Shown piece after piece: positions 16,519-55,213 of a stretch of 64,000 nucleotides of DNA. Source of the stretch: an uncultured Eubacteriales bacterium (lineage in GTDB: Bacteria > Bacillota > Clostridia > Lachnospirales > Lachnospiraceae); NCBI GenBank assembly GCA_949289145.1, contig CASEML010000051.1:2306-66305 (forward strand), written 5' to 3'. Each line of letters starts with the position of its first letter. Within the stretch, counting starts at the first letter, position 1. Both the position numbers and the translations under genes were made by a program. The notes below the pieces were generated by a model. It was not told where the DNA came from. It worked only from the letters and a program-made list of their open reading frames with translations, and searched no databases.

Positions 16519-16531
16519 ATATTCCACCACC

Positions 16532-20315: not shown

Positions 20316-20362
20316 AAAAACAAAAAAGCAGCCGTCTTTACTTTTCATTTCAAAACGGCTGC
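20316..20362 (-). terminator. Rho-independent terminator in the long spacer between the CPBP gene and the TPR/AAA gene
   Basis: Stem GCAGCCGT(20328-35)/ACGGCTGC(20355-62), followed on the minus strand by TTTTTTGTTTTT. Confidence 0.55.
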
Positions 20363-21860: not shown

Positions 21861-21952
21861 AAATGCTATTTGAACTGCCAATTACAAAATAAAATATAAC
21901 CCAAAGTAAATAAAAGATTCCAGAACATTTCTCATTCCCACTTTACCTCCTT

Positions 21953-26371: not shown

Positions 26372-27074
26372 CTTCCTGCTCCTTTCCCTGAATGATCTCG
26401 TAAAGTCTTCCCTTAGATTCTTCAAAATAATTTTCAATCAATGCCCTTGCCCTGTCTTTTAAGTAATATCTCTCCTCTGACTGTGCCATTAATTTTTGTG
26501 AAATCAGGAAATTTAGCACTAACTTAATGTAGCCTGCTTTGGAATTTTTTACGGCACGAATGGACTCCTCTGTGGCTGCCGGCAAATCACTCCACATCAT
26601 TGCCAGTGTCTTAAAGCTGTTTTCCTCTGTTTCCTTGTTGGTGAGAATTTCCAAATTATCAATTATATGCTTTAAAGAATAATCTACTGTTTCCATAATG
26701 TCTTCAATTTTCACGTACTCATTAAAATTGTATCCTGATGAATCTGTATAAAAGCAGGTAATGATCTGATAAATAATGAAATAACAAAGATACAATTCTC
26801 GATTCACCTTTAATCCCAGCTCTTTTCTCAAATCCCCATTGCTGAACCCAAAAGCCTGATTGTTATCTCCGGCAGTAATATAAAGGCAGTAATTGTATTC
26901 ATAAAGCTTAATATTCATACGGTTAAGCATACGGTTTACCAAATCATAGACTTGAGCATTGGTGCTGTATGCTTCGTACAATGAAACATTTGCTCCGCTG
27001 TTCCTCCCCACTTCTTCTCCGTCTAATAATCTGGTCAGTATATCAATTGCTTTATCTAAATTTCTTTCTTCCAT
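26358..27074 (-). CDS. MukE/MksE/JetB-like small subunit (putative)
   Basis: 238 aa with an acidic C-terminus. Its start overlaps the upstream gene by 19 nt and its stop overlaps the SMC-like gene by 14 nt. Size and position match the middle gene of MukFEB/JetABC operons. No motif-level proof. Confidence 0.45.
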   Translation of the reverse strand: MEERNLDKAIDILTRLLDGEEVGRNSGANVSLYEAYSTNAQVYDLVNRMLNRMNIKLYEYNYCLYITAGDNNQAFGFSNGDLRKELGLKVNRELYLCYFIIYQIITCFYTDSSGYNFNEYVKIEDIMETVDYSLKHIIDNLEILTNKETEENSFKTLAMMWSDLPAATEESIRAVKNSKAGYIKLVLNFLISQKLMAQSEERYYLKDRARALIENYFEESKGRLYEIIQGKEQEDAAY

Positions 27075-40224: not shown

Positions 40225-41184
40225 CTACGGCGTTTGATGCTTTCTTTTTTCCCTCCTCTTTTTCCTTACTTCTTCCTGTTTTTTCTTTATTATGGATGCA
40301 TCTTCCTCTGATACCAGCTTCAATGTTTTTATTACATAAAAACTTCCTTCTTCCGCCTTTTTCATCCGAATTTTTCCTTTCAGAAATCCATGATTTTCAC
40401 AATATGCCTGACAATAGTACATTTTTCCGTTTCCCGAAAACCATCGGATTTTTTTTCTGGCATTTTTGCCGCAAAGATAACATCTGGTGCTGGCAACCTC
40501 CCGGTCTGCCATGGCAGTCTCCTTGCTTGAAAATTCTCTGGAAATGTATTTAGAATAACTTTCAAACACAGCGTATACTTCACTCTTTTTATCTTTTGGA
40601 CGCCTAAAAGTATCAATAGAATAATACCGTTCCATATCTGAATAACTCATTTGCTGCATAATCCGCATGGTATACATGGCATCTTCCCCCGCTCTGTGAA
40701 AAGCTGCTGTCTTTAATATGTGCAGATAATCTACTGCATACTCTAAAGAACGCCTTGCTTTGGCATCTTCCTCAAAAATAATGGAAAAGACTTTCTGAAT
40801 ATCATAAAATTTAAATGGTCCCTGTGCCAGCGGTTCTAATCCATAAAATTTCATATTTCGCTGTAATTCTATCAAATCTGTAGCTCCCCAGGTACAAAAA
40901 ATATAATCTTCACCACACCATTCTAAAAACTCTTTCATCACCTGAATAAAACTCTGACCCTTACTTAGTTCCTTCATTGTAATGCAAAGCATACTTCGAG
41001 TATAACGATGAAACTCTTTATATACAGCAGGACGAATCAAACGTGTAAATTCTCCCACACACTCCTTTTTGCTATTCAGTTTCATCGCACCAATTTCTAT
41101 GATTTCGAACGGGAGTGCTTTATTTTCTAATTCCTTTCCGTAAGGACATTGATTCCATTCTAAATCCAATACGATATAGTTCAT
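40225..41184 (-). CDS. DEDDh 3'-5' exonuclease (DnaQ/ERI-1/KapD-like) with a Cys-rich, basic C-terminal extension
   Basis: IVLDLEWNQ (Exo I) and HRAGEDAMYT (Exo III, H-x4-D). The C-terminus has CYLCGKN...YYCQAYCENH followed by KKKQEEVRKKRREKRKH. Confidence 0.8.
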   Translation of the reverse strand: MNYIVLDLEWNQCPYGKELENKALPFEIIEIGAMKLNSKKECVGEFTRLIRPAVYKEFHRYTRSMLCITMKELSKGQSFIQVMKEFLEWCGEDYIFCTWGATDLIELQRNMKFYGLEPLAQGPFKFYDIQKVFSIIFEEDAKARRSLEYAVDYLHILKTAAFHRAGEDAMYTMRIMQQMSYSDMERYYSIDTFRRPKDKKSEVYAVFESYSKYISREFSSKETAMADREVASTRCYLCGKNARKKIRWFSGNGKMYYCQAYCENHGFLKGKIRMKKAEEGSFYVIKTLKLVSEEDASIIKKKQEEVRKKRREKRKHQTP

Positions 41185-41193: not shown

Positions 41194-42102
41194 TTATTTT
41201 CTCTTTTTTGTTAATAGCAATCCGCATACAATAAGCAGAAGAATCGCACCTGCCCCAATATAAGGCACATAAGTTTCCAGCCAGATCTGTCTGGCAGAAG
41301 TGCTGCTTTCTTCTGTCTCCTGTATTTCTTCGGCTTGTACTTCCATAACTTCTTCCGTTTTATTTGGTTGTTCAGTGTTTTCACAACGCTCTCCATATAC
41401 TAAATATCTGTGGGTATTTTGGGTATATGGATGACAAGTTAAAAGTGTTATCTTATCTTTCCCTTCTTCGATAAGAATTTGGTCAATTTCATCAGGAAGC
41501 ACAATCTTTGTTTCCGTAACCTGATAAGTCAAAACCTGAAAAGGTGTAGTGATTTCAATTCTATCACCAGGTTCTATCACCTCTATCTGGCGGAACATGG
41601 GTGTTCCCTGATATCCCCTGTGAGCCGCCACCACCACATTGGTATTTTCCCCACCTAAAGGCATAGAAGTTTCCCCTAAGATAGCTGCACCTTTTTTCAT
41701 ATTCTCACTGTCTGCTCCCAAATAAAGAGGCAGCTCCACTTCCATAGCCGGAATTCGTATGATACCGATCACATTACTGTCAAACCCATATTCTGTCAAA
41801 TCAAAAGAAGGCATTTCATAATCAAAAGGATCCTTTAAATTTTCCTGTCCTTCTTTATAAATTCTTTGATTGTACTCCTGCATATCACAATAAAGCTGTT
41901 CCAGATTTTCCTGAGAAACCTCTGTCTCCTCCTGCTGCTCTATATCTTCCTCCTGTACTACTGCCAGCTCTTTTTTAAATTCCTCTATAGCTTTCTGTTG
42001 GCGGTTTAATGCATACCACTCTGTTATCTTTGGATAAAGAAATACGCCTAATCCACAAAGAAACAATATAACCATGGCAAACTGAAGTACTTTTCGTTTC
42101 AT
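41194..42102 (-). CDS. Class C (pilin-polymerising) sortase
   Basis: N-terminal TM; VVAAHRG (His), TLLTCHPY (TLxTC) and VYGER (Arg); C-terminal TM plus KKRK. Confidence 0.88.
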   Translation of the reverse strand: MKRKVLQFAMVILFLCGLGVFLYPKITEWYALNRQQKAIEEFKKELAVVQEEDIEQQEETEVSQENLEQLYCDMQEYNQRIYKEGQENLKDPFDYEMPSFDLTEYGFDSNVIGIIRIPAMEVELPLYLGADSENMKKGAAILGETSMPLGGENTNVVVAAHRGYQGTPMFRQIEVIEPGDRIEITTPFQVLTYQVTETKIVLPDEIDQILIEEGKDKITLLTCHPYTQNTHRYLVYGERCENTEQPNKTEEVMEVQAEEIQETEESSTSARQIWLETYVPYIGAGAILLLIVCGLLLTKKRK

Positions 42103-42111
42103 AGTATCCTC

Positions 42112-44610
42112 CTAAAATGCTTTCCAGTAATAAAACAGCAGTTTTTTTCCTTTTTTCAATCCGGCTGCTGCCTGTTTTACAAGTGCTTCATACATGGCAA
42201 GAGAAAATTCTATATCCTCTTTTGTAATAACTTTCTGACCATAATGTACCTGCAGCACCAAATCCATATAGCGGGATAAGGTTTCTATATCTAATTTAGG
42301 ATACAGTCTGCTTACTTCTTGTACAAACTCCTTGGTAGTAGTATCTATTTCCTTGGAAAATCCTAAAAACTGCAGCACCTGATAAAAACTGCAGAACACT
42401 TCCTTAATCTGCTGTTCCTTAGAAAATCCCGGTACCATTCCCCTTCTTTTTCTTCTCAGAAAACCATATCTTAAAGTCAGTGTTAATAAAACTATAACAA
42501 ATACCAGTACAATCATCAATACTTTTCCAAAAATGGCTGCATTTCCTGTCTGGTTTTGCTGGGCTTTTTTCTGTTCTTCTTCCTTATCCTGTTTTTCTTT
42601 TACCTGTTCCTGCTCCTTTAAATCCGCCTCAGATACTTCCATATCTACTACAGTTCCCGCAAATCCAGGAGTGGTTTCCACAGGTGTCCACCCATACTCA
42701 GGCATATAAATTTCCACCCACGCATGGGCATTTTCATTTTGCAGCAAGCAAGTATAAGTTCCATCACCATTTCCAATAAACAAACTAGAAGGAGCTGCAT
42801 ATCCCACCACATATCTGGCAGGAATACCGCACATCCTATACATCAGTACTGCAGCAGAAGCAAATGCAGTAGAATCTCCCCGCTTTTTTTCAGAAAAGAA
42901 GTAAGATACAAAATCTTCTCCCTTTGGCAGTTTCCACACTTCTGTGGTAAAGGTGCAATTACTCCATAAGGTACTTACAATAAATTGTTTTATATCGGAA
43001 TATTTCTCCTGTTCTATCACATTCAGCTGTTCCTCTGTCATTTCCTCGGTAATTTTACTGTTCCATTCCTCCCGCTTTTCCTTACAAAGCTCTGACAACT
43101 CTCCAAAGGCATTTTCATCTACCTGGGTATCTGCAGCATATACATAGCTGCCATAAGCCTCTAAAAGGTCATCCAACACGCTCTGAGAGGAATCTTGTGC
43201 TTTCCACCGTGAAATGGCACTCTGATATTCTTTCACTGGAAACCATGAATAAACATCTTCCTGCAATGTCTGTCCTGCCACAGCACCATCCCCCTCCATT
43301 ACGTAATAATCGTTTAGAAAGGTTTGATATGGCACATAGGTATAATTCACATTGGCATCCAAACGTTTTACAGACATTTCAATAGGACTGTTTAATCTGC
43401 TTCCGTCGTCCTCACCTAATATCTTCTGTGCATACAACATACGCAGAAAAGGCAAATTTTGAATATAGATGAATGAATTGTCTTGTATTTCCCAGTTTTT
43501 TACCGCATTTTCAAATTCTTTTGTATCCCGCGCTAACCATTGACTTCCTGTATACTCCGTTCCTATAAATCCTTTTAAATAAACAGTTTCCTGAGGCTTT
43601 CTGGAACAGGTCAGCTGTAATGCCTCTGTATTATCATAAGAAAACCCTGACACATCTCCTAAGTTTCCCTGAGATACACCGCCTCCTACACCTTCCATTG
43701 AAAAGCTTAATTTTCCTCCGGAAATTTTTGGAAGAATTTCATACAGCAGCTGCAAACCACTGACTTTCATGGGCGAAGCTACCTGAGAGACTTTTTCTAT
43801 AGTTATGGTTATCACCGGACGCAGTCCATAAAATGAAACCAGCATTAATATGGTTCCTATGAAAGCAAAACACAGGGTAAGACGAAGCTGAATTCTTCTG
43901 CTTACTTTTTTATTCTTACTAAATTCCTCTTCTTTTTCCACATACCAATATTTTTTCCGCACAGACATTCCTGCAAAAGAGGTAATGCTTAAAAATACCA
44001 GCAGCAGTAGTGCCAGAGAACTTTTAGAGGACCTTCCGCCCCCAAGTAAGGAAAACATAGCCAGCGGAAATGTCACAAAAATAAACTGTAAATTTTCCTG
44101 TTTTTCTATCATTCCCTTTGCCAGAAAAACACCCAGCCAGAAAAATAATACGCTGAGAAAATAAGTTCCTGTAGTTTCTCCTTGTGGAAATAGTTCAAGA
44201 CTGCCATTATAAGTATTATTTATCTGAAGGATTATGTCATTCATTACACTATAAAAACTGTCACGAATGATGGGTCCGGTAATAACAAACAATAACACAT
44301 TTACAAATAGCGCACCCGGAAATAAATACCGAAATGCAGATTTCTTATTTTCTCTTTCATAATACCATGTTAAAACTACGCTATAGAGACACAGCAACGG
44401 ATATAATACAAACACATTACAAGAAAAAGAATAACTAGAAATCACCATACCTGCCAACGATGCCATTGCCAAAAAAAGCACTGCTGCCCTTACCACAAAC
44501 ACTGCTTTTTCATTGAACTTTGACTGTTCTCGCTGCACTAACCTGCAGCGCACCACCTTTATGGCCTGATCTTCTTTTTCCTGCCTTTTTTTTATATTTC
44601 CAGTTTCCAT
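42112..44610 (-). CDS. Polytopic membrane protein with an extracytoplasmic transglutaminase-like core (TgpA-like), variant active site
   Basis: 832 aa with multiple N-terminal TM segments. The core reads KRGDSTAFASAAVLMYRMCGIPARYVVGY...NAHAWVEIYMPEYGWTPVETTP. One late TM segment is followed by a helical tail. Confidence 0.75.
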   Translation of the reverse strand: METGNIKKRQEKEDQAIKVVRCRLVQREQSKFNEKAVFVVRAAVLFLAMASLAGMVISSYSFSCNVFVLYPLLCLYSVVLTWYYERENKKSAFRYLFPGALFVNVLLFVITGPIIRDSFYSVMNDIILQINNTYNGSLELFPQGETTGTYFLSVLFFWLGVFLAKGMIEKQENLQFIFVTFPLAMFSLLGGGRSSKSSLALLLLVFLSITSFAGMSVRKKYWYVEKEEEFSKNKKVSRRIQLRLTLCFAFIGTILMLVSFYGLRPVITITIEKVSQVASPMKVSGLQLLYEILPKISGGKLSFSMEGVGGGVSQGNLGDVSGFSYDNTEALQLTCSRKPQETVYLKGFIGTEYTGSQWLARDTKEFENAVKNWEIQDNSFIYIQNLPFLRMLYAQKILGEDDGSRLNSPIEMSVKRLDANVNYTYVPYQTFLNDYYVMEGDGAVAGQTLQEDVYSWFPVKEYQSAISRWKAQDSSQSVLDDLLEAYGSYVYAADTQVDENAFGELSELCKEKREEWNSKITEEMTEEQLNVIEQEKYSDIKQFIVSTLWSNCTFTTEVWKLPKGEDFVSYFFSEKKRGDSTAFASAAVLMYRMCGIPARYVVGYAAPSSLFIGNGDGTYTCLLQNENAHAWVEIYMPEYGWTPVETTPGFAGTVVDMEVSEADLKEQEQVKEKQDKEEEQKKAQQNQTGNAAIFGKVLMIVLVFVIVLLTLTLRYGFLRRKRRGMVPGFSKEQQIKEVFCSFYQVLQFLGFSKEIDTTTKEFVQEVSRLYPKLDIETLSRYMDLVLQVHYGQKVITKEDIEFSLAMYEALVKQAAAGLKKGKKLLFYYWKAF

Positions 44611-45701
44611 TCCATCAATTCCTCTTCTAAATTCTCCTGACTGAACTGTTTTATGCAGTGGCCGTCTTTATATAAAAGTCCATGTATGTTTAAAAGAAAA
44701 TAAGTATCTGCCTTCTTCATTCCTGACTGGTGTTCATACATACTAAGTATATCTGCATATTCCTGGTCTTTTCTGTTGTTGCACACTTGCTCTAACATAT
44801 AATAAACATCTTTTTCTTCTTGTACCTTAATCTGGTTTAACTGTCCCTTTTCTTGCTGATACCACATAATTATGTGGTTTAAACCCTGCTCTGTCATCGA
44901 CCAGGAAAGAGATGCCAATATTTCTAAAAAGCAGTCAAACTGAGCCTGTGTTACCTGCTCTTTATCTGCATAAAAATCTATAAATACCAGAATGGTCTGC
45001 TCAATGGGCAGGCTGTATTCTTTTACCAGATATTCATCTTCTTTGGCTGTTAGTTTCCAGTGAACTCTCTGAAACATATCACCTTCTCTATATTCATGTA
45101 CATCAAATACTTCTGAAGTATCCTCTCCGCTTCTTGCATGAGAAAATTCTTCACCCTCCTGCTTATCTTGTACCCATGTTATAGCGTTTAATGATATCTT
45201 ATGAATCTTAGGAAACACAATAATTTCTTTCGAAATTTCCAGTACTGGTGCTTTTTTTGAAAAAAGGCGCAGATAATCCTGCACCCTTATTTCTTCCATG
45301 GTAATACGCATTTTCCCACAATATTTTGACTGAAGGAAAAGAAGCAGGGAAGCAGTTCCCTTAGCATCTGTCATTACTTTTTCTTCCGTATAAAATTTTT
45401 CTCCAGTAAACTCATTTTCACAGCTTACCTTCACCGGTATTACGGGCATTGGAAATACTGATAAATTCTTTACAAGAACTTCCACAGCAAATTCCTGATT
45501 TTTCTCAATATGTGCTGTTGGAATGTTCAATTCAACTCTAATGTGTTTCTTCAGTCCCTCAGTCAGCAGCCACAGCACCGGAAGCAGAATGATTTCATAT
45601 GCCAGCAGAAATATTGTTATCTCCGAAGAAAACAATATACAGCTAAACAAGGTTACCAGTAAAATCGTGGCATATATTATTTTATTTTTCATGAAATCCA
45701 T
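44592..45701 (-). CDS. DUF58 family protein (vWA-like partner of MoxR)
   Basis: Two N-terminal TM segments. VHEYREGDMFQRVHWKLTAK fits the DUF58 signature (R.Y..GD....IhWK.tA+). Confidence 0.8.
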   Translation of the reverse strand: MDFMKNKIIYATILLVTLFSCILFSSEITIFLLAYEIILLPVLWLLTEGLKKHIRVELNIPTAHIEKNQEFAVEVLVKNLSVFPMPVIPVKVSCENEFTGEKFYTEEKVMTDAKGTASLLLFLQSKYCGKMRITMEEIRVQDYLRLFSKKAPVLEISKEIIVFPKIHKISLNAITWVQDKQEGEEFSHARSGEDTSEVFDVHEYREGDMFQRVHWKLTAKEDEYLVKEYSLPIEQTILVFIDFYADKEQVTQAQFDCFLEILASLSWSMTEQGLNHIIMWYQQEKGQLNQIKVQEEKDVYYMLEQVCNNRKDQEYADILSMYEHQSGMKKADTYFLLNIHGLLYKDGHCIKQFSQENLEEELMEWKLEI

Positions 45702-45708
45702 CCTTTGC

Positions 45709-46653
45709 TTACGGTTGCTGCGGCACCGGTTTTTTTACATTTTTTAATATATCTGAAATGATATCCTTATTTGTCAGATGATTTAATTTTCCTTTGGAAT
45801 TTAAACGGATTCTGTGAACTGCCACATCCGGGAAAATTTCTTCCACATCATTTGGAAGTACAAGTTTCTGTCCCTTTATATAAGCTGATGCCTTCGCCAT
45901 TTTTGACAATGCCAATGTACCTCTAGGACTAATGCCAAGCTCGATCATTTCATGCTTTCTGGTGGCATCTGCTAAGTTAATCATATATTCATATACTGTT
46001 TTATGAATAAAGACTTCTTCCACTTCTCTCTGCATTGATAGCAGTTCTTCCTTTCGGATTACGGGCTGCAAGCTGTCAATAGGATTTTTCTTATCTCTGT
46101 CCATCAATATTCTTAATTCATCCTGCTTATCTGGATACCCAATAAAAATACATATCATAAAGCGGTCTAACTGGGATTCCGGAAGCATCTGGGTTCCTAC
46201 AGAACCGATGGGATTCTCTGTAGCAATTACGTGAAAAGGCTTCGGCACTTCTCTTGTGACACCATCTACAGTAACTGTACCTTCTTCCATAACCTCTAAC
46301 AGTGCAGACTGTGTTTTAGGAGAAGTACGATTGATTTCATCTCCTAAAAACAAGTTACACATCACTGCTCCCGGCTGATATTCAAATTTTCCCAGCTCTT
46401 TTCGGTACATGGAAAAACCTACAATATCTGTAGGAAGTACGTCCGGTGTAAACTGTACACGATTTTGTTTTAGATCCATTGCCTTTGCAAAGGCGAGTGC
46501 CATGCTGGTCTTTCCTACTCCCGGAATATCTTCAATGAGAATATGCCCCTCTGCAAGTATGGCTTCCATAATTTTTTCAATACAATGATTCTTTCCTATA
46601 ATAACTTTTTGTACTTCTTCCATTACCCTGCGGGCTTTTTCTACATATTCCAT
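45709..46653 (-). CDS. MoxR-family AAA+ ATPase
   Basis: GHILIEDIPGVGKTSMA (Walker A), NLFLGDEINR (Walker B) and ATENP; 314 aa. Confidence 0.9.
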   Translation of the reverse strand: MEYVEKARRVMEEVQKVIIGKNHCIEKIMEAILAEGHILIEDIPGVGKTSMALAFAKAMDLKQNRVQFTPDVLPTDIVGFSMYRKELGKFEYQPGAVMCNLFLGDEINRTSPKTQSALLEVMEEGTVTVDGVTREVPKPFHVIATENPIGSVGTQMLPESQLDRFMICIFIGYPDKQDELRILMDRDKKNPIDSLQPVIRKEELLSMQREVEEVFIHKTVYEYMINLADATRKHEMIELGISPRGTLALSKMAKASAYIKGQKLVLPNDVEEIFPDVAVHRIRLNSKGKLNHLTNKDIISDILKNVKKPVPQQP

Positions 46654-46656
46654 GAG

Positions 46657-47532
46657 TTACTCCTCTCTTGCCTGCTTTCTTCGTTTCATGATCACAAGGA
46701 ATATGACTGTTTCTACAGCAAAAACTACCACAAAAGCAAATAAAAGCCATGGCCATACATCTACAATCCTCTTTGTAAGAGAGCCTGACTGCATCTGACT
46801 TTGTGTATTATTTTCCTGTTCTTCCTTATATTCCGTTCTTACTCCTCGAACCAGAAGACGATGGGTATTAATTGCATACGGCGTACAAGTTACTAAAGTA
46901 CAGTAATCCATGCCTTCCTCAATTTCCAAATCTCCCGATTCATTTGGTTCCACTACTTTAATCTGATCAACTTTATAAGCCAGAACTTCATCTAACACAT
47001 GAAGATAAAATTCATCGCCCAGCTCCAGTTTATCTAAATCTGTAAATAATAAAGCGCTGGGCAGCCCCCTGTGTCCTGTCAGGACACAGTGTGTACTTTC
47101 TCCTCCCAGCGGATAAGATGACTGCTCTAAATGGCCAACGCCTCTTTTCAACACTTCTTCATCAATTTCACTGTAAATTGGCAGATTTACATCTATCTTA
47201 GGTATCACAATATACCCAAGGGCTACCCCTGCATCTACCATATCCAGATACTTTACTGATTTATTTTCACTTTCTTCTTCCACGGATATGATATCACTTA
47301 GCTGTTCATTATATTGTCTGGCTGCTTCCTTGGCAGCATCTATTTTCTCTCCTTCCATCTGCGCCACCTCTTCCTCATAACTGCGAACCACCGAAGATGC
47401 ATGGCGGTTCGCTATGATGTTGCTAACAAATGGATACAAAAGAATAATAATTCCTGATATAAATAATATAACACTAAACCAAATTCTTGGTCTTTTTAAT
47501 TTTTTAAGCATGATTTCTCTTTCTTGCTCCAA
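46657..47532 (-). CDS. Class C (pilin-polymerising) sortase
   Basis: N-terminal TM; VLTGHRG, TLVTCTPY and LVRGVR; C-terminal TM plus basic tail. Its start overlaps the pilin gene stop. Confidence 0.88.
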   Translation of the reverse strand: MEQEREIMLKKLKRPRIWFSVILFISGIIILLYPFVSNIIANRHASSVVRSYEEEVAQMEGEKIDAAKEAARQYNEQLSDIISVEEESENKSVKYLDMVDAGVALGYIVIPKIDVNLPIYSEIDEEVLKRGVGHLEQSSYPLGGESTHCVLTGHRGLPSALLFTDLDKLELGDEFYLHVLDEVLAYKVDQIKVVEPNESGDLEIEEGMDYCTLVTCTPYAINTHRLLVRGVRTEYKEEQENNTQSQMQSGSLTKRIVDVWPWLLFAFVVVFAVETVIFLVIMKRRKQAREE

Positions 47533-49621
47533 AGAATACGATTACTGCTGCTGCCATTAAAACAATACCCATTAAAGTAAACACAAGAGTACCTGCTCCA
47601 CCAGTAGTAGGAAGTATAAAACCTTTTTTATTCACAACGTTTACGGTAGTTGTTGTGACTGTAGTTGCAGATGTTTTTCCTGCATCCGTATAATAAGTTG
47701 TGCTGTCAGAACCACTTTCTGTTACCGTAGGTGTTCCGATCACATTTCCGTTTTTATCATACTTTGTTTCTGTAGTTGTAGTCTTAAAGGTTTGATCATA
47801 GTAAATCTGAATTTTCACTGCAACTGGTTCTTTTAATAAATTGTATCCAGAAGCTGTGGAGGTTTCTACAAAATAGTATGTTTCATTGGAAAATGCCTTA
47901 TCATTGTCACCTGACTGTGTTGTGTTGATAACAATTTTACCACTGGCATCTGTTGTGTAGGTGCCGGCCTTTTTCACATCCACATTGGTTCCATTTACCT
48001 TTAATGTAGCATCTTTTGTTTCTCCGGACACTAACGGTCTGTACAAATCAAAAGTTGCTTTTACACTGTCACTTGCTGCTGAACCGGCAAATGTCTTTAC
48101 GAGTTCTAAGCCAAACGTATAAACTGTAACTTTGTCTGTAATAGTCTTAGTTTCTTCATATGGCTGGCTATCATCTTCCGGTGTGTTTGGATTCTGATCA
48201 TCGTCACCCGGCTTTGGATAAATCTTATTAGTGTACTCTAATCCCACTGTATTCGGGTTACCTGCTCCTGCAGTCAGGGCATTTGCATTTAATGTGGCTG
48301 TAAATGTTACTTCCACGCTGGAAATGCTCTTATTATATAATTTTTCTACATCACCGCTTAAATCTAAAGTCCATTGATTTTTCGCAGCATCATATACCGG
48401 TTTTGTGGTAATTCCGGTATCTGTCACCTTGGAAGTTCCTACATAATAAGATACTACAAAGCTTGCCTGATCTGTGCTGTCCATTGTTATACCAGAAGAC
48501 ATGGTGTCCACCAAAACATAATGTTTTAATTCGTTGATATTTTCTGGTACGGTAGAAGTTACCTTAAATGGAACTCTGTCACCAACACTGTAATCGGCTG
48601 CATCCTGCCAGTCACTTGCATTGTCTGCACTTCCATTTTTTATAAGTACTTTTTTCTCTAATTCCGGTTTAAAGTTTACTACAGAAACAGTAGAAGTTTT
48701 CTTTCCGTTCACAGTGATCGCACCGTCTACTCCTACGGTAAATTCATAAGCTGCTGTACCATCCATAATATAATCTGTGCTGGGTGCGCTGGTTTCAATA
48801 AAGCGGTATTCACCCTCTGACAATCCGCTGATTTTCACGGTTGTACTGCTCATCGTGATCACACCGTTTGTTCCGATGTCATCTCCTTCATCATTTTTTG
48901 TCTGTGTTGTCCAAACACCGTTTACCTTTTTCTGTAATACAAACTGTGCTCCGGTAACACCTACTGCGCTGCCCTCTCCTGTTTTTCCATACTTTTTTAA
49001 CCTTACTGTACTTGCTGCAGTTGTATTTTTAGGAAATGCATACACATCATAAATCCAGTCAGTTCCTTCCACATTTGTCATAGGAAGAGATACTAAGAAC
49101 GGATCTACCATACTTGCTACACTATCCGGTGCATTTGTTTCAACTACAAGGTATAAACCCTGCCCGCTTAAATCATCATTTGTAAATTTTGCAATTCCAT
49201 CCTTGCCATCTACAGTAGCTGTTGTCTTTTCAACCGGTGTCAGTTTGCTTAAAACAGCTTCTGTAAACTGTGCTTCAATATCAGCGGCTGACATGCCACC
49301 ATTAATGGTGGCACCCACATCACTTCTAATTGCCTCTACTGTGCTGTATTGTAAGCCGTTTTCATCTTGTGTAATATTTGCTACTTTATATACTGCAAAG
49401 GTAACACCATTTAATAGCACAGCGTCCTCTGGAACTTTGCTTTCGTCTCCAATGACACCTGTTCCTGCTGCCCCTTCATCACCATCATAACGATATTTAT
49501 AAATAGTGAGTGAAACATCTTGGTCTTCGTTAATGGTTGGTTCTGCTGCAAAAGCAGTCAATGTGGACAAAAGCATGGTAGCTGCCAATATCCATGATAA
49601 AACTTTTTTTAGTTTCTTCAT
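47504..49621 (-). CDS. Major pilin (SpaA-type backbone subunit) with an LPxTG sorting signal
   Basis: Signal peptide; pilin-motif-like WIYDVYAFPKNT; E-box-like YRFIETSAPSTDY and YYFVETSTASGYNL; C-terminal LPTTGGAG plus TM plus RKRNHA. Confidence 0.85.
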   Translation of the reverse strand: MKKLKKVLSWILAATMLLSTLTAFAAEPTINEDQDVSLTIYKYRYDGDEGAAGTGVIGDESKVPEDAVLLNGVTFAVYKVANITQDENGLQYSTVEAIRSDVGATINGGMSAADIEAQFTEAVLSKLTPVEKTTATVDGKDGIAKFTNDDLSGQGLYLVVETNAPDSVASMVDPFLVSLPMTNVEGTDWIYDVYAFPKNTTAASTVRLKKYGKTGEGSAVGVTGAQFVLQKKVNGVWTTQTKNDEGDDIGTNGVITMSSTTVKISGLSEGEYRFIETSAPSTDYIMDGTAAYEFTVGVDGAITVNGKKTSTVSVVNFKPELEKKVLIKNGSADNASDWQDAADYSVGDRVPFKVTSTVPENINELKHYVLVDTMSSGITMDSTDQASFVVSYYVGTSKVTDTGITTKPVYDAAKNQWTLDLSGDVEKLYNKSISSVEVTFTATLNANALTAGAGNPNTVGLEYTNKIYPKPGDDDQNPNTPEDDSQPYEETKTITDKVTVYTFGLELVKTFAGSAASDSVKATFDLYRPLVSGETKDATLKVNGTNVDVKKAGTYTTDASGKIVINTTQSGDNDKAFSNETYYFVETSTASGYNLLKEPVAVKIQIYYDQTFKTTTTETKYDKNGNVIGTPTVTESGSDSTTYYTDAGKTSATTVTTTTVNVVNKKGFILPTTGGAGTLVFTLMGIVLMAAAVIVFFGARKRNHA

Positions 49622-49657
49622 AAACTTTTTCCTCGCTTTCTTGATTCTATAGATTTC

Positions 49658-52600
49658 TTAAAAAACAATTTTTATTCCTTTCTTTTTGTATATATAGAAG
49701 CACACTCCTGCTCCGATGCATGCAGCTCCCACAAAGAAGAAGATGGTTCTTCCATAGCCTCCCGTAAACGGTAAAGTAAACTGCTTACGGTTGGAAATGG
49801 TTACAGAAATCGTATCTGCCTCTATGGTACAATTTTCTCCGTCAATGGTACTCTGTCCGCTTCTGTCAATCACAACAGTAATAGAGTTTTTCAACAAACT
49901 GTATCCATCCTTTGCCTTTGTTTCTGTCAGACGATATGTTCCATCTTTTAAATCTGAAAATACAACAACACCATCTGTTTCTGTCTTTGCTGTCACTTTA
50001 GTAAATGTATCATCTACCGTTCCATTGTCTTTTAATTTCTCCAAAGTAAATTCTACATCAGAAAGCTTAATGCTGTTATCTGTTGCATCCACTTTAATAA
50101 TCTTTATATTAGTGCTTTGATAAGTATTTGTAATTGTTCCAGTTATGGTCTTTGTCTGTTCGTCAATTTCGTAAGATACCTGATAAGAACCTACAAATCC
50201 TCCCTCTTCTATTACATTTCCATCTGCATCCAGTTCCACTACTCTATATTCCCATTCCACTGGTGTTGCTGCTGTGTAGTCTACATACTGTTCTAATCCC
50301 TCTAAAGTATACTCCCATGTGCCATATCCCGGCTGCATAGTAATTTTATTCTGACCATTTATAGGAACTACACTATAGCTTCCTGTGCTTCCTTTTGCTC
50401 TTCTCTGAATCTGCACATCAATAGAAGATGGAATATTTTCTGTCAGATCACTTCCATTGGAATCTTTCCAGAGTTTGACCAGTTTCATACTGATAACAGG
50501 TTTTTGTGTATTATTAAATGTAAAATCATAAGAACTTGCTGATGCTGAAACAATACCTCTTACTATCTTTGTCTGTACGTCGAAATTAAAATAGTTTCCG
50601 TTTTTCTCTGTTACACTGTCTAAAACAGAGCCATCTTCCGGTGTCAGTTCTTCGATTTCATAATTTGTGTTAATTGGAATACCGCTAATGGTTTCACTTT
50701 CGCCCGCCTTCAAAGTAATTTCTTTAGTAATCTTGGATGTTCCTTCCAAACCAAGACCTGCCACATTACTGAAGGTTATCTTAAACTTATATTCACCTGT
50801 AAGATTATCTGTAGTGTAAGCATTTCCCTTGCGAATTGTCAATTCACCTGTTTTTACCTTATTGGTGTAGGCAACTTTAATCTTTGTTACTCCCGTAGTG
50901 CTATCCGGATTAGAGTAGGAACGGAAAACAATTGTATTTTCCTCTGGTTTCTGCGTTCTTGTATAACCTGAGTTAGCATATTCTTTGCCATCCGAATCCT
51001 GACCTGATAAATATACCTCAGCTCTTCCGTCATCCACTGACACAGATGCCACATTAGTTAAATTACTAATTGTGCCAAGCTCTACCGTTCTACCATTTGC
51101 CATGCTGGTAACTGGAGAGCCATTTTCATATACCGTATAACTGGACTCAAACACATCTGTATCAACATTTTCTTTTAATGAAATGTAGCTTCCTATACGG
51201 AACTGGTCAGTAAAAGATGCTGTCTGTCCATTCTGTAAGATAAAAGTTCCGTCATTTCCAAGACGGTTATATTCGACATCACCGCTATCGGCAGTGATAC
51301 TATATGTTGCTCCCTTGGGATACTCTAAATTTCCCGAAGTTGCAGAACCATAATCCGGAATATCATACTGTTTTGTATTAAATCCAACTAGGCTTGTTAC
51401 CGTTGACTTTCCGTAAAATTCAAATCCATCTAAATAGAAGTCACCGTCATAATTATAATCAAATTTAATATATTTTAGCCTTGTATAGTCAAAGTTCACA
51501 GAACCAGTTAATTTTGATATATCTACGGTAATTTTTGACCATTGCTTCGATCTGACGGAAGTGGTTATAAATGTTTTCCCATTTAAGTAACCTCCAATGG
51601 TATTACCGCTGGCATCTTCCAATTCAATATACATATGGTTAAGTGCAGGATTATCTGTTTCGTCATAATAATATTGGAATCTTAAGTAATCCTTTACTTC
51701 TGATATATCAACAGTCTCTCCACTGGCAGGTGCCATAATACCAAACCGCTGTTCTTTGTATGCTCCTTGTGGATCTGTATATTTTGCTGCATAATGCACT
51801 ACATTACTATGCCCGTTAAATTCAGAAACCTGTTCAAATGTATTTTCCGCAGAACCTTTGCTTAATGTGGTGCTGGCAAACGTATCATTAAATGTAACAG
51901 GTGCCTTTTCTGTACCAAAGTCAGCTTCTTTCGTTCCATAATGTGTTGCCTGATTCTTGATCTCAAACGGGAATATGGAAGCATTATCAAATAAACCTGC
52001 AAATAAACTCTGGTTAACATCGGAATCATCTACCTGCTTTTCTACTTCAAAGGTATTTTCATCAGGGAAGTTAAAACTTACATACATGTTAGATTCCCAA
52101 ATACCACGTTCCATATAGAACATAGTTAACGTATGTTCGTCTGTTTTACTGCCGCTAATCGTAAAGCTTCCTGTATAATCATTTATATAACCGCCGGAAG
52201 CCTCTGGGTTTTTAATTTTACTAACATAATAGGTTAAATCCTTAAAATTCAGGTAGCCGGTTACAACATCATGTCCACCGCCAATATCCAATGCCAGTTT
52301 TCCATCTATGAAAATCCAAACATCATCATCACCGGAAAAGTTAAATTCAATCGGAGCTTCATCTCCTTCGGTAGTTACAACAGTTCCGTCTTCTGTTAAC
52401 CGGAATTTCGTTTCCAGTTTAGTGGCAAAACCATAATTTAGTTTTCCCGCATTTCCGCTCTGTTCTGCTCCGTTAAATGGAAAGAAATTACCAGCTGCCG
52501 TAACTCCATCTGTTGTTTTACCTTTTACCACATTGTCTGTAGAATTTAAATAATAATTCTTTGTGTCAGGGTCCTGTGTCAGACGAAGGTTTGTAGAGGC

Positions 52601-54889
52601 ATCTTTACTGTCAAACACCCAATATTCTACCTGACCTGAAACATCTGGATCACTTTTGCTGTTTAATGATTCCTTGGAAAACGGAAACGCTACATTTTCA
52701 TACACTTTTCCTAATACTGTATTCTTGGAATTGTTTCCGCTTAAAAAATCTTTATTTAAGAATGGTGCCTGTACTGTTCCTTGGAAAGTCTTAATCATCA
52801 AGTTTCCATCGGATAAAGTATCACTAACCAATCCTATGGTTGCATTTTGACCGCCTTGAGCAATTTCATATCCGTCACGTCCCCACATAGAATTATTTTC
52901 ATAGAAAAATTTCTTGGTGTCATTAGAACCATATAAATTCAAATCTGCTGAAATCTGACTAAACGGAGAACCACTGTAATGTTGGAAATTTCCCCAATAC
53001 AATGGAGAAACTGCATTGTTAGCTTTATAAAATTCACTTAATGCCTGGTCAAACTGACGGAACGGCTGATATATTCTATGATCATTGGCATCATATGCAT
53101 AATTGTCACGATTCCATCCATTTAATTCATAATCTGTATAAAAATCATAAAATGTAGTTGATAAATATAATTTATTGGAATCTCTTACTTCCTTTTCCAC
53201 AGGAATATCCACTACGGTATTGGAGGTGCCCCCTTCCTGCTCCGGATTTCGAACAGTGTACACTTCATCCCAGTATCCATCTCTCTGCCCTCCATCGTAA
53301 ATAATATCATCGCTGGTATCTGCATAAAAGCATGGATTGCTAAGATCGGTAGGAATTGTAAGCTCTACTGTACTTTCTCCATGACCTCCATAATTTGTTA
53401 TACTGGTCATATCAAAAGAAGAAAATGCAATATTTGTATATCCTTCCGGTAAATCTACTTTATATACGTCAGAATATGTGTTAGTTCCACTAGAATACGT
53501 TGGAACTAATTCCATATCACCTTCTATATCAGGTTTTCCATCACCAGTTGCATAGTAGCGAATCGTACCATTGCTGTTTGGTATTCCATAATCCCCTGCC
53601 CCATTGGTACCATCTGCTGCGCTGTATGTCAGTTTAGATAACGTAGCATCAAAATAAACTGTCAATGCATTACTATATGTACCGGTTACTTCCGCAAACA
53701 TATCTGTTACTGTCACTTCATTTTTAGTAAGATCACTCCAGAAGAAACGATATTTGGTGCCATCCTGTTTTGTGAATGTAAGCACTGTCTGCTGGGTAAC
53801 TGTATTATCTTCACCAAAAGTATATTCAAAATTACTTCCGGTTGCCGGTAACTCAACAATATTATCAGCCTGACCTATCTGTATTTTGCAGCCTTCTGTT
53901 ACTGGAAAATACAATCTGCTGAAATAAAGTGTTCGCCCTGACAGTGCCTGATTACCATTTACTTTTGCTCCCCATCTGCTGTATTTCTTGTTATTAATTT
54001 CACTTGCTCCATAATACAAGGTATTTCTTTCAGTGGCATCATACCCATTAGAACCTGAATTTAAAAAATCATAGGTATCGCCCAATAAGGTATCTGCATC
54101 ATAAAATTCCACTGTACTGTATGCACTATTGACTCCGTCTGCTGGAATCGTTACTTGATACAGACCCTTTACCTCAGTATTGGCTATCATATTTGTTTCA
54201 TATACATCATTATTTTCATTACTAAATTTAGCTATTACACTATCCAGACTGCCTGTCATATCAAAGAAGTACATGGTATTTCCTGCCTGTGATTCCGGTA
54301 CAAGGCTGCCTAAATACTGTACTGTTTTATTGCTTCCGGAAGCTCCTCCGTCTAATCTAAAGCACGGATAAGGATCATTGCCCACCGCACCGCTGGTTAG
54401 CGCTATATCCACTGTCTGGTATCCATCATTTGCGCCTCCCCATGTTGCCTGGTTTATAAAAATTACCCCAGTATATCCTGTATCCTCCGAAGTGAGCGTA
54501 TATTCCCACAATGTTCCTGTAGAATTAATCAGCGTATTTTCTTTGGTGGATTTTGTCATAGGCTTAATATTTCCTGATTGACCGCCGATCAAATAAATAT
54601 ACATATTACAGTCTTTTGTCCAGTTATTCCAACCGCCATTGCCATCCGTATCAAAATATATGGTTTTGGCGGCACCGGTAGAGGAAATTTCAGTTTCATC
54701 AATTTCTGTTGTTTCTTCTTCCGGAACATCTTTGGTAATCATGTCACCTGAAGAATCAGTTTTTTCTGCAAATACACTGCCGTATTCCCCGACAATACTA
54801 CAGAGTATGCTGGCAATCACTACTATTACCAGAGTTCTTCTGACGATATCCCATACTTTTTTTAATTTGATTTTCTCCATAAACTCCAT
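49658..54889 (-). CDS. Giant tip adhesin: N-terminal CBM-like repeats, fibro-slime/PA14-like domain, CnaB/SpaA-type stalk, LPxTG-like signal
   Basis: 1743 aa. The fibro-slime signature includes FYDFYTDYE...FFPFNG...FSGDDDVWIFIDGKLALDIGGGH. The stalk reads DGTYRLTETKAKDGYSLL. The C-terminus is LPFTGGYG plus TM plus KKKG. Confidence 0.85.
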   Translation of the reverse strand: MEFMEKIKLKKVWDIVRRTLVIVVIASILCSIVGEYGSVFAEKTDSSGDMITKDVPEEETTEIDETEISSTGAAKTIYFDTDGNGGWNNWTKDCNMYIYLIGGQSGNIKPMTKSTKENTLINSTGTLWEYTLTSEDTGYTGVIFINQATWGGANDGYQTVDIALTSGAVGNDPYPCFRLDGGASGSNKTVQYLGSLVPESQAGNTMYFFDMTGSLDSVIAKFSNENNDVYETNMIANTEVKGLYQVTIPADGVNSAYSTVEFYDADTLLGDTYDFLNSGSNGYDATERNTLYYGASEINNKKYSRWGAKVNGNQALSGRTLYFSRLYFPVTEGCKIQIGQADNIVELPATGSNFEYTFGEDNTVTQQTVLTFTKQDGTKYRFFWSDLTKNEVTVTDMFAEVTGTYSNALTVYFDATLSKLTYSAADGTNGAGDYGIPNSNGTIRYYATGDGKPDIEGDMELVPTYSSGTNTYSDVYKVDLPEGYTNIAFSSFDMTSITNYGGHGESTVELTIPTDLSNPCFYADTSDDIIYDGGQRDGYWDEVYTVRNPEQEGGTSNTVVDIPVEKEVRDSNKLYLSTTFYDFYTDYELNGWNRDNYAYDANDHRIYQPFRQFDQALSEFYKANNAVSPLYWGNFQHYSGSPFSQISADLNLYGSNDTKKFFYENNSMWGRDGYEIAQGGQNATIGLVSDTLSDGNLMIKTFQGTVQAPFLNKDFLSGNNSKNTVLGKVYENVAFPFSKESLNSKSDPDVSGQVEYWVFDSKDASTNLRLTQDPDTKNYYLNSTDNVVKGKTTDGVTAAGNFFPFNGAEQSGNAGKLNYGFATKLETKFRLTEDGTVVTTEGDEAPIEFNFSGDDDVWIFIDGKLALDIGGGHDVVTGYLNFKDLTYYVSKIKNPEASGGYINDYTGSFTISGSKTDEHTLTMFYMERGIWESNMYVSFNFPDENTFEVEKQVDDSDVNQSLFAGLFDNASIFPFEIKNQATHYGTKEADFGTEKAPVTFNDTFASTTLSKGSAENTFEQVSEFNGHSNVVHYAAKYTDPQGAYKEQRFGIMAPASGETVDISEVKDYLRFQYYYDETDNPALNHMYIELEDASGNTIGGYLNGKTFITTSVRSKQWSKITVDISKLTGSVNFDYTRLKYIKFDYNYDGDFYLDGFEFYGKSTVTSLVGFNTKQYDIPDYGSATSGNLEYPKGATYSITADSGDVEYNRLGNDGTFILQNGQTASFTDQFRIGSYISLKENVDTDVFESSYTVYENGSPVTSMANGRTVELGTISNLTNVASVSVDDGRAEVYLSGQDSDGKEYANSGYTRTQKPEENTIVFRSYSNPDSTTGVTKIKVAYTNKVKTGELTIRKGNAYTTDNLTGEYKFKITFSNVAGLGLEGTSKITKEITLKAGESETISGIPINTNYEIEELTPEDGSVLDSVTEKNGNYFNFDVQTKIVRGIVSASASSYDFTFNNTQKPVISMKLVKLWKDSNGSDLTENIPSSIDVQIQRRAKGSTGSYSVVPINGQNKITMQPGYGTWEYTLEGLEQYVDYTAATPVEWEYRVVELDADGNVIEEGGFVGSYQVSYEIDEQTKTITGTITNTYQSTNIKIIKVDATDNSIKLSDVEFTLEKLKDNGTVDDTFTKVTAKTETDGVVVFSDLKDGTYRLTETKAKDGYSLLKNSITVVIDRSGQSTIDGENCTIEADTISVTISNRKQFTLPFTGGYGRTIFFFVGAACIGAGVCFYIYKKKGIKIVF

Positions 54890-55141: not shown

Positions 55142-55213
55142 TGTTCCCTGCAGGAATCGAACCTGCAACTGACCCTTAGGAGGGGTCTGTTATATCCATT
55201 TAACTAAGAGAAC
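55142..55213 (-). tRNA. tRNA-Arg (anticodon CCT)
   Basis: The minus strand reads GTTCTCT-TA-GTTA-AATGGATA-TAAC-A-GACCC-CTCCTAA-GGGTC-AGTT-GCAGG-TTCGATT-CCTGC-AGGGAAC-A. All four cloverleaf stems pair (one G:U), the T-loop is TTCGATT, and the anticodon loop is C-T-CCT-A-A. No CCA is encoded. Confidence 0.92.

Follow-up and report, generated by a model that had tools for sequence, protein, structure and literature searches.

The window analysed here, a 64,000-nt stretch of DNA from an uncultured Eubacteriales bacterium of the Lachnospiraceae, carries eight genes on its minus strand that run in the order adhesin, pilin, SrtC-1, MoxR, DUF58, TgpA-like protein, SrtC-2 and exonuclease. All of these open reading frames lie where an earlier note on this DNA had placed them, and re-measurement of the tight junctions it described (gaps of 36 nt or less, or overlaps) gave the same values. 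The adhesin and pilin genes are separated by 36 nt; the pilin and SrtC-1 genes overlap by 29 nt with a TTG start for SrtC-1, or by 8 nt with the gene caller's ATG at 47511; the SrtC-1 and MoxR genes are 3 nt apart, and the MoxR and DUF58 genes 7 nt (16 nt with the gene caller's start); the DUF58 gene overlaps that of the TgpA-like, transglutaminase (TGase)-like protein by 19 nt; and SrtC-2 lies 9 nt from both the TGase gene before it and the exonuclease gene after it. A promoter-like site (TTGAAA-17-TATAAT; 54990-54962, minus strand), identified by consensus match only and agreeing at 11 of 12 positions, lies 73 nt 5' of the adhesin start, and a strong intrinsic terminator, a 17-bp hairpin followed by a U-run (40132-40076, minus strand; -25.3 kcal/mol, z = -6.1), lies at the other end. 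Since our search of the internal gene junctions found no terminator comparable to this one, we predict that the genes from adhesin to exonuclease form a single eight-gene transcription unit.

The first two genes encode a putative tip adhesin and a putative backbone pilin. The adhesin (49658-54889, minus strand; 1743 aa; Pfam and NCBIfam domain matches) has a signal peptide, a central fibro-slime/PA14-like domain, Cna-B/SpaA domains and an LPFTG sorting signal. The pilin (47504-49621, minus strand; 705 aa) is of the SpaH/EbpB type (NCBIfam, 188 bits against a cut-off of 95; Pfam), with an AFPKN pilin motif, an LPTTG sorting signal and ETxAP motifs that resemble an E-box. The two sortases belong to class C, and each has a C-terminal transmembrane anchor. 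SrtC-1 (46657-47532, minus strand; NCBIfam, 270 bits against a cut-off of 160) has a TLVTC catalytic motif; SrtC-2 (41194-42102, minus strand; 207 bits against the same NCBIfam cut-off) carries TLLTC as its catalytic motif and DPF as its lid motif. The last gene encodes a DEDDh (KapD-like) 3'-5' exonuclease (40225-41184, minus strand; Pfam and NCBIfam). The earlier note had counted it as the eighth gene of the cluster, and here it is probably co-transcribed; however, it adjoins the cluster only in close relatives (L001 and L005-L008), which, judged from gene neighbourhoods, places it outside the conserved module. The locus resembles those for the class C pili of Corynebacterium (SpaA), Enterococcus (Ebp) and Streptococcus (RrgA/B), sharing with them a tip adhesin and a SpaH/EbpB-type backbone pilin that both carry LPXTG signals, the pilin motif Lys and E-box-like motifs, and one or two membrane-anchored class C sortases in the same operon. 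It differs in encoding neither a base pilin nor a housekeeping sortase, in the absence from SrtC-1 of the canonical (D/E)P(F/W/Y) lid motif, which is missing from 73 of the 74 first sortases of triad-linked loci, and in the addition of three conserved genes, those for the MoxR AAA+ ATPase, the DUF58 protein and the TgpA-like protein (together, the triad). To our knowledge, the sortase pilus systems described so far operate outside the cell independently of ATP.

The first protein of the triad is a MoxR-proper AAA+ ATPase (45709-46653, minus strand; Pfam AAA_3, 1e-53, with AAA_lid_2) with intact Walker A (GVGKT), Walker B (DEINR) and LDRF motifs; its score of 27.9 bits for the bpMoxR Pfam family barely exceeds the cut-off of 27. 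The DUF58 protein (44592-45701, minus strand; Pfam, 29.1 bits against a cut-off of 23.4; predicted structure pLDDT 83.5) combines an N-terminal transmembrane hairpin, a CARDB-like beta-sandwich and the DUF58 signature motif with an alpha/beta (vWA-like) domain that has no MIDAS motif. We infer that MoxR and the bulk of DUF58 are cytoplasmic. The TgpA/YebA-like protein (42112-44610, minus strand; Pfam Transglut_core, 7e-20; Foldseek) has eight transmembrane helices, and its predicted structure has a pLDDT of 79.7, with values of 82-95 in the catalytic region. Read by the positive-inside rule, residues ~263-693 form an extracytoplasmic TGase-like domain and residues 720-832 a helical cytoplasmic domain at the C-terminus; the ectodomain has a TgpA-type fold, with 6G49 as its top Foldseek match (E 1.8e-8). 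The basis for this outward topology is the positive-inside rule together with TgpA; the prediction that the TGL domain of YebA-like proteins is cytoplasmic (Zhang and Aravind, PMC3495828) counts against it. In the Gemmiger lineage (Oscillospiraceae), the N-terminal part of DUF58 is fused to TgpA (L034, L035, L037, L039 and L040), which we count as support for a physical complex.

The association of the triad with pilus genes is widespread. In a genome scan seeded with the TGase, 40 of 78 loci have one or more class C sortase genes directly upstream of MoxR; these loci come from Lachnospiraceae, Oscillospiraceae and Bulleidia and usually carry the same adhesin and pilin, the adhesin family occupying the corresponding position. 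The order SrtC-MoxR-DUF58-TGase thus recurs in dozens of divergent genomes, more than chance would explain, beside the same fibro-slime adhesin and SpaH/EbpB-type pilin family, in at least three bacterial families. The comparative genomics proposed in the earlier note therefore shows an arrangement that is not strain-specific, and identifies the adhesin and pilin types that accompany it. TGase homologues at 48%, 35% and 31% identity all lie within adhesin-pilin-SrtC-MoxR-DUF58-TGase clusters, and the linkage survives at TGase identities as low as 29-35%, in different families and despite rearrangement of the second sortase. A metagenome sample seeded independently with the adhesin contained about 32 triad-bearing loci. 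Single metagenome-assembled genomes can carry two loci, each with its own triad (L005 and L044; L011 and L018), and in L041 the SrtC-SrtC-triad block is kept together without adjacent pilin genes. The earlier note had emphasised the position of the triad between two pilus sortases; this is true of the window, but in many loci SrtC is present once, or twice with both copies upstream of MoxR, such that the placement of SrtC-2 relative to the triad differs among lineages. By gene order, it is the SrtC-MoxR junction that is conserved, the triad occupying the operon's 3' end, and the conserved core is adhesin-pilin-SrtC-MoxR-DUF58-TgpA. We also found 14 related adhesin-pilin-2xSrtC loci without a triad; such pili can therefore be built without it, and the triad is an accessory of one pilus sub-lineage rather than a general need of pili with fibro-slime adhesins. 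Neighbour-joining trees place the pilus-linked proteins of each triad family, MoxR, DUF58 and TGase, in a single clade; the pilus-linked loci all go back to one ancestral association and are therefore not independent events.

Free-standing triads, such as YeaC-YeaD-YebA of B. subtilis and that of P. aeruginosa TgpA (PDB 6G49), share with the pilus-linked triad the same protein families, gene order and transmembrane architecture, the TgpA ectodomain fold and intact MoxR motifs, but for the pilus-linked triad the association with class C sortase and pilin genes is obligatory, and its TgpA has lost the nucleophile Cys. In the window's protein, Ser580-His629-Glu645 replaces Cys-His-Asp: in a profile alignment Ser580 matches the catalytic Cys of TgpA 6G49 (GFCAHYAGA), His629 and Glu645 fall on its AHAWVE and v(D/E)pT motifs, and in the predicted structure Ser580 caps the helix 580-593. 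The nucleophile position is Ser in 39 of the 40 genome loci with an adjacent sortase and Ala in the other (L026), and Ser in all 25 complete TGases of the metagenome sample. By contrast, Cys is kept in 32 of the 34 free-standing triads of the same genome scan; none of these 32 Cys-type triads has a sortase nearby, and the only Ser-type loci without one, four in number, all lie at contig ends. The Ser codons fall into two families (AGY, n = 31; TCN, n = 15), each one step from TGY and each associated with a distinct operon layout, a pattern that speaks for selection of Ser. The remaining core residues of the active site are identical between the pilus-linked and Cys-type clades. Other clade-specific changes are concentrated in the TgpA extracytoplasmic domain, with conserved motifs NLPFLR, GDGAV.GQ and LP...GG, and not in MoxR; the alignment of pilus-linked ectodomains contains no invariant Lys that might act as a sortase acceptor. 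Functional coupling of the triad to the pilus, as the earlier note proposed, is thus well supported at the level of sequence, by recurrence across families, by the triad forming its own clade and by the clade-specific active-site change.

What form this coupling takes is a matter of weighing alternatives. The earlier note had considered a second covalent cross-linking step, and a Transglut_core domain facing outward, where pilins are, would suit the formation of Gln-Lys isopeptide bonds in the pilus or cell wall; however, such classical chemistry is disfavoured, to the point of being highly improbable, because the catalytic Cys is replaced throughout the pilus-linked clade. The TgpA-like protein might instead be an active Ser-His-Glu hydrolase or transferase that trims, releases or re-links the pilin or adhesin, or clears sortase products, with MoxR-DUF58 as its activator. 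The otherwise wholly conserved catalytic pocket and the maintenance of Ser by two codon families favour such an enzyme, but we consider it rather unlikely: we know of no transglutaminase-fold enzyme shown to work with Ser as its nucleophile, papain-like folds that carry Ser instead (SERA5, for example) are, as far as we know, considered mostly non-enzymatic, and L026 has Ala at this position. MoxR-vWA-YebA has been proposed to be a membrane-proximal ATP-dependent peptidase system (Zhang and Aravind, PMC3495828), yet unfolding and then cleaving a substrate in one compartment fits poorly with the prediction that the membrane separates the ATPase from the TGase-like domain. A Ser-type ectodomain would also suit binding rather than catalysis, as in sensing, whereby contact or tension at the pilus tip would reach DUF58 and MoxR by way of the TgpA-like protein and so signal into the cell. 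The closest analogue is the actinobacterial Esr/PFNA cluster, in which a surface-filament gene lies beside genes for MoxR, a vWA/DUF58 protein and a transglutaminase-like protein (Esr in Schaalia odontolytica; PFNA, pkb2-fn3-aaa-duf58-tgm, in Bifidobacterium, with the order fn3-aaa(MoxR)-duf58-tgm), and for Esr this logic, with an Ig-like surface filament, is experimentally supported. Unlike the predicted sortase-polymerised pilus of the window, the filament of Esr consists of one polypeptide that lacks LPXTG, and descriptions of the two clusters include no sortase gene. Moreover, Esr and PFNA encode a Ser/Thr kinase as output, joined in some cases by a phosphatase and an FHA protein, whereas neither a kinase or phosphatase nor an FHA or other output domain turned up in or beside the window cluster or those related loci that we inspected, and the genes 3' of the TGase are unrelated among lineages (GlnA, LacI, ABC transporters). 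We therefore regard sensing of this kind as doubtful. MoxR-vWA-beta-propeller ternary conflict systems likewise couple a MoxR and vWA-like pair to an extracytoplasmic sensing or binding part (Kaur, Burroughs, Iyer and Aravind, 2020, eLife e52696), but the window cluster lacks a beta-propeller as well as any effector or toxin domain, and a PADLOC search of it gave no match.

The earlier note had also suggested a chaperone that assists maturation or insertion of the very large adhesin; in this reading, the triad would be a cytoplasmic chaperone that aids secretion or membrane insertion of the adhesin or of the four-domain pilin. MoxR ATPases are reportedly chaperone-like remodellers in general, working with vWA partners, and triad-linked pilins are longer than those of triad-less relatives (650-740 against 495-580 aa) and, like the window's pilin, have an extra SpaA-like domain in the alignment. 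Nonetheless, this role seems quite improbable, given that homologous adhesins in triad-less loci are just as large (1670-1760 aa) and that the clade-specific changes lie mainly in the outer domain of TgpA, not in MoxR. Lastly, the triad could simply travel with a mobile pilus island and act elsewhere, for example in envelope homeostasis, like free-standing YeaC-YeaD-YebA. Pilus islands often move horizontally, the association arose once, and a tRNA-Arg gene immediately precedes the operon; but we found no repeat of the tRNA 3' end within the window and no integrase among the identified genes in or adjoining the cluster. Genomic hitch-hiking is also hard to reconcile with a linkage that survives such divergence and rearrangement, with the active-site change and new ectodomain motifs throughout the clade, or with paired loci that each retain a triad, and we consider it very unlikely.

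We tentatively favour the possibility that MoxR, DUF58 and the TgpA-like protein form a dedicated, co-evolving membrane complex that is an accessory factor of a sortase-assembled pilus, within a six-gene module of gut Clostridia. The TGase-like domain would face outward, where sortases and pilin precursors act, and would no longer perform thiol transglutaminase chemistry; it could serve instead as a platform on which the pilus base or pilin-sortase intermediates dock and are retained, either as a pseudo-enzyme or as a Ser-His-Glu hydrolase or acyl-transferase. From inside the cell, MoxR might spend ATP, via DUF58 as an adaptor, to remodel or gate this platform. We count as a precedent the finding that, in Schaalia, deletion of esrD1, the TGase gene of a MoxR-vWA-TGase cluster, makes the EsrA1 surface filament the protein most released into the supernatant (bioRxiv 10.64898/2026.09.08.750141). 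Consistent with the view of the earlier note, we found no description of a sortase pilus combined with MoxR-DUF58-TgpA in the literature searched. The trio would then be an energy-linked accessory of a kind not yet described for sortase-built pili, through which the cell may control the assembly, anchoring or release of this pilus type.

The eight minus-strand ORFs of the pilus operon lie exactly where the earlier note had placed them, and adjacent ones either overlap or are separated by 3-36 nt. The leading gene (49658-54889) encodes a tip adhesin of 1743 aa, with SpaA/Cna-B and fibro-slime domains and an LPFTG signal identified from Pfam, NCBIfam and the sequence; the second (47504-49621) encodes a backbone pilin of 705 aa that scores 188 bits against the SpaH/EbpB major pilin model (cut-off 95) and has an LPTTG sorting signal, an AFPKN pilin motif with its Lys, and E-box-like ETxAP motifs. 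Both sortases, SrtC-1 (46657-47532) and SrtC-2 (41194-42102), match the NCBIfam class_C_sortase model (270.4 and 207.2 bits; cut-off 160), and TLVTC and TLLTC catalytic motifs and C-terminal hydrophobic tails, a membrane anchor, can be read in the two proteins. In these sortase and pilin features the operon matches a sortase-dependent Gram-positive pilus locus. MoxR (45709-46653), DUF58 (44592-45701) and a TgpA-like transglutaminase-fold protein (42112-44610) make up the triad between the two sortases, and the last gene (40225-41184) encodes a DEDDh-type exonuclease (Pfam/NCBIfam). A TTGAAA-17-TATAAT site lies upstream of the adhesin gene, and a 17-bp hairpin with a U-run lies 3' of the exonuclease gene (40132-40076; -25.3 kcal/mol, z = -6.1). 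Since none of the internal junctions has a comparable terminator, we predict that the eight genes form one transcription unit. A tRNA-Arg (CCT) gene (55142-55213, minus strand) is found directly upstream of the operon, between a DUF3881 gene and the adhesin promoter. We considered recent insertion of the cluster and rejected it: the 3' end of the tRNA, allowing up to 3 mismatches, is repeated nowhere in the window outside the tRNA itself, there is no integrase among the genes identified in or adjoining the cluster, and GC content is not sharply distinct.

The gene arrangement recurs beyond this strain: TGase homologues that are 48%, 35% and 31% identical all lie in adhesin-pilin-SrtC-MoxR-DUF58-TGase clusters. 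A TGase alignment, searched against one genome per species, yielded 78 loci, the closest genomes being uncultured Lachnospiraceae MAGs; we annotated these loci by phmmer with the window's proteins, distinguishing Ser-, Cys- and Ala-type loci by the residue at the nucleophile position of the TgpA-like protein. One or more class C sortases are encoded immediately upstream of MoxR at 39 Ser-type loci and one Ala-type locus, and the same adhesin and pilin families occur within the 10-kb flank at 29 Ser-type loci; the four Ser-type loci that lack a sortase begin no more than 1.3 kb from a contig end. No sortase accompanies any of the 32 Cys-type triads (for 21 of them, 3 kb or more of upstream sequence is available), and the neighbours of these free-standing triads are heterogeneous, with no surface-filament pattern. 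The carriers include Blautia, Mediterraneibacter, Roseburia, Agathobacter, Bariatricus, Gemmiger, Faecousia, Cibiobacter and Bulleidia, and among them are the culturable strains Blautia intestinalis 27-44 (L027), Blautia sp. MSJ-19 (L038), Gemmiger formicilis ATCC 27749 (L034) and Lachnospiraceae bacterium 64-25 (L010). Two "Bacteroidales" MAG contigs (L036 and L079) are probably mis-binned; some TGase clusters hold thousands of metagenomic members. Trees built by neighbour joining give a single clade of pilus-linked proteins for MoxR, for DUF58 and for the TGase alike, the sole additions being loci on truncated contigs. This single origin of the association means that the locus counts are not independent events. 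Single MAGs can hold two such loci, each having its own triad (L005 and L044; L011 and L018). One further locus (L041, 5967-12349) has the order SrtC-SrtC-MoxR-DUF58-TgpA(Ser) but lacks upstream genes for an adhesin or pilin, suggesting that the sortase-triad link can outlast linkage to the pilin, or possibly reflecting a MAG assembly artefact. The upstream gene at that locus instead encodes a product whose C-terminus appears to resemble a methyl-accepting chemotaxis protein.

The conserved core consists of the adhesin, pilin, SrtC, MoxR, DUF58 and TgpA-like genes. The earlier note had described the operon as interrupted by the triad between two sortases; this holds in the window's lineage, but is a lineage detail rather than a defining trait, since the second sortase gene lies downstream of the TGase gene in the window's sub-clade, upstream of MoxR in another, and is absent from Blautia-type loci. 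Likewise, the exonuclease gene adjoins only in close relatives (L001, L005-L008), and whatever else follows the TGase gene is unrelated between lineages (GlnA, LacI, ABC transporters). In the reverse test, with metagenome contigs seeded by the adhesin family, the triad was present at about 32 loci, complete or cut by a contig end, and absent from 14 loci with ample sequence. These 14 fall into two groups, one with a small third pilin gene after the sortases, and their pilins are shorter, three-domain proteins (495-580 aa vs 650-740 aa). The triad is therefore not generally required, but accessory to a single pilus sub-lineage. With regard to the sortases themselves, the canonical (D/E)P(F/W/Y) lid motif is missing from the first sortase behind the pilin (SrtC-1 type) at 73 of 74 triad-linked loci, and SrtC-2-type sortases have DPF or DPW; among the triad-less relatives, both sortases of the L124 group contain the motif and neither sortase of the L131 group does. 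A lid-less SrtC-1 does not explain the presence of the triad, because group B triad-less loci are lid-less too and the correlation is imperfect. Four related loci (L002, at 13330-14970, and L010, L025 and L046) have, behind both the triad and the gene for a short (~237 aa) class C sortase, a gene for a 546-aa protein with an N-terminal SpaA/GramPos_pilinD1 pilin-like region and a C-terminal sortase domain, apparently a pilin-sortase fusion.

The TgpA-like protein contains Transglut_core (PF01841; 7e-20), with PF11992 (TgpA_N) found in close homologues, and the top PDB match of its ectodomain by Foldseek is 6G49, the periplasmic domain of TgpA (E 1.8e-8, TMt 0.63). An AF2 model (pLDDT 79.7) has about eight TM helices and the ectodomain, then one more TM helix and a C-terminal domain that is helical, so the protein combines a polytopic membrane region with a TgpA-fold core, as in TgpA/YebA-like proteins. 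The Cys-His-Asp catalytic triad, however, is not intact. In a profile alignment, Ser580 (motif GDSTAFAS) aligns with the catalytic Cys of Pseudomonas aeruginosa TgpA (GFCAHYAGA in 6G49); the His is kept and a Glu occupies the acidic position. The nucleophile position is Ser in every pilus-linked TgpA-like protein other than that of L026, the Ala-type locus, and in 25 of 25 complete TGases from the adhesin-seeded metagenome sample; His629 and Glu645 are invariant, and the remaining core residues are the same as in Cys-type free-standing triads. The Ser codons are of two kinds, AGY (31) and TCN (15), both one step from TGY and each tracking a different operon layout, which implies either that Cys changed to Ser twice in parallel or that selection has maintained Ser. 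The clade also has invariant ectodomain motifs that are absent from free-standing homologues (LP294...G299, W373, NLPFLR at 385-390, Y436, GDG at 440-442, Q447 and D452). We considered whether the ectodomain might serve as a sortase acceptor, through a Lys or an LPXTG-like motif, and rejected this: no Lys is invariant, and the residues after the conserved LP at 293-294 are variable. Cys509, in the helix before the TGase core, is conserved in 91% of pilus-linked proteins and is Phe in free-standing ones. Loss of the catalytic Cys is also seen in free-standing triads outside the pilus clade, with Ala in two Pseudogracilibacillus loci (L074 and L075) and Ser in a Christensenellaceae locus (L082). 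A downstream LPKTA-signal protein is found in L074 and not in L075, so that the Pseudogracilibacillus triads show no consistent association with such a protein.

MoxR is a MoxR-proper (MRP) AAA+ protein by its Pfam matches (AAA_3, 1e-53; AAA_lid_2, 6e-21), with intact and conserved GVGKT (Walker A), DEINR (Walker B) and LDRF motifs. The adjoining gene product matches DUF58 (PF01882; 29.1 bits vs 23.4) and has the invariant signature motif GD..HWK; the canonical vWA MIDAS (DxSxS) is absent, its first Asp alone being conserved in pilus-linked and free-standing clades alike. In the DUF58 model (pLDDT 83.5), a TM hairpin and a CARDB-like sandwich accompany an alpha/beta domain that is predicted to be cytoplasmic; searches of the PDB gave nothing meaningful by sequence and only generic beta-sandwiches by Foldseek. 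Loci of the Gemmiger/Oscillospiraceae group encode 1043-1053-aa fusion proteins that join an N-terminal portion of DUF58, comprising its TM hairpin, beta-sandwich and signature motif, to a full-length TgpA; these fusions argue for a physical complex of DUF58 and the TgpA-like protein. By the positive-inside rule, we infer that residues ~263-693 of the TgpA-like protein face outward and 720-832 inward. With this topology, pilins and sortases would be reachable only by the TgpA ectodomain and TM helices, and MoxR and DUF58 would therefore act from the cytoplasmic side. We rejected the possibility that the triad is an anti-phage/conflict MoxR-vWA ternary system, since the bpMoxR match is borderline (27.9 vs 27), the cluster has no beta-propeller or effector domain, and PADLOC matched none of MoxR, DUF58 and TGase. 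Elsewhere in the window, a run of minus-strand genes at 17426-28606 encodes large proteins without clear Pfam matches (935 aa with a weak IstB-like P-loop; 1494 aa and 516 aa with no match) and a DUF6063 protein of 238 aa; this may be a defence or condensin-like system that is not yet characterised. Also on the minus strand, at 4149-14336, an RHS/YD-repeat protein of 2955 aa, with domains of the PKD, fn3 and DUF6531 types, is encoded downstream of a 434-aa CBM25/CBM26 starch-binding protein with one RHS repeat, near GlgB-like (14599-16530) and pullulanase-like (29040-30992) genes.

The earlier note took the near-zero spacing of triad and pilus genes as a sign of functional coupling, and the data now strongly support that view; we consider coupling very probable. 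The best precedent for how it might work is the Esr pathway of Schaalia, in which deletion of the transglutaminase gene of a MoxR-vWA-TGase cluster makes the EsrA1 filament the most-released supernatant protein (bioRxiv 10.64898/2026.09.08.750141); its gene logic is shared by the PFNA cluster of bifidobacteria (PMC8430577). The window resembles these systems in that its adhesin and pilin genes directly precede SrtC-MoxR-DUF58-TGase, and differs in that its filament would be a polymer rather than one polypeptide. Our tentative preference is for a docking/retention or assembly platform, in which intermediates of pilin and sortase, or the base of the pilus, would be bound or possibly processed by the Ser-type ectodomain, a platform that MoxR-DUF58 would use ATP to remodel. 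The same precedent could point to Esr-like signalling, but this is unlikely: Esr/PFNA clusters include a Ser/Thr kinase, and some a phosphatase and an FHA protein, whereas no Pkinase, PP2C or FHA match was obtained from the cluster, from its neighbours or from the related loci inspected. Zhang and Aravind proposed a model of a membrane-proximal MoxR-vWA-YebA degradation system in which the TGL domain was assumed to be cytoplasmic (PMC3495828), at odds with the topology that we infer and with TgpA.

With His629 and Glu645 retained beside Ser580, the protein could be a genuine serine hydrolase or transferase, which we regard as just as unlikely as signalling. The earlier note raised the idea of covalent cross-linking; in the form of classical transglutaminase chemistry, this is scarcely credible given that the pilus-linked clade has lost the catalytic Cys. 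A role for the triad as an export chaperone is improbable, and its hitch-hiking with the pilus genes is more improbable still. The platform reading can be extended, with more doubt, to propose that the pilus base or intermediates are held by the outward Ser-type TgpA domain while MoxR ATP hydrolysis, acting through DUF58, gates assembly, anchoring, release or mechanosensing. If this is true, the sortase-built pili of this family would be the first in Gram-positive bacteria to include a component coupled to energy, and the ubiquitous but obscure MoxR-DUF58-TgpA/YebA triad would gain its first identifiable client.

No paper in the literature that we searched links sortase pili with MoxR, DUF58 or TgpA, and none that pairs sortases, pili or pilins with transglutaminases or fibro-slime domains describes the combination, in line with the earlier note, which knew of no such system; the parts belong to known families, but that literature describes neither the composite nor the Ser-type TgpA clade. 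Assembly of pili by sortases is considered to need no ATP and to take place at the outer face of the membrane, a view that a conserved, dedicated AAA+ module within a pilus operon would challenge. The MoxR-DUF58-TgpA/YebA triad occurs widely, and P. aeruginosa depends on TgpA as an essential protein; to our knowledge, the triad has no known substrate. By naming the pilus as a candidate client, the operon makes this question directly testable, and the clade-wide Cys-to-Ser switch provides a clean natural experiment on transglutaminase-fold chemistry. Moreover, gut Clostridia of humans and animals commonly have the module (for example Blautia, Mediterraneibacter, Roseburia, Agathobacter and Gemmiger), which is therefore likely to bear on how these abundant commensals attach to substrates or hosts.
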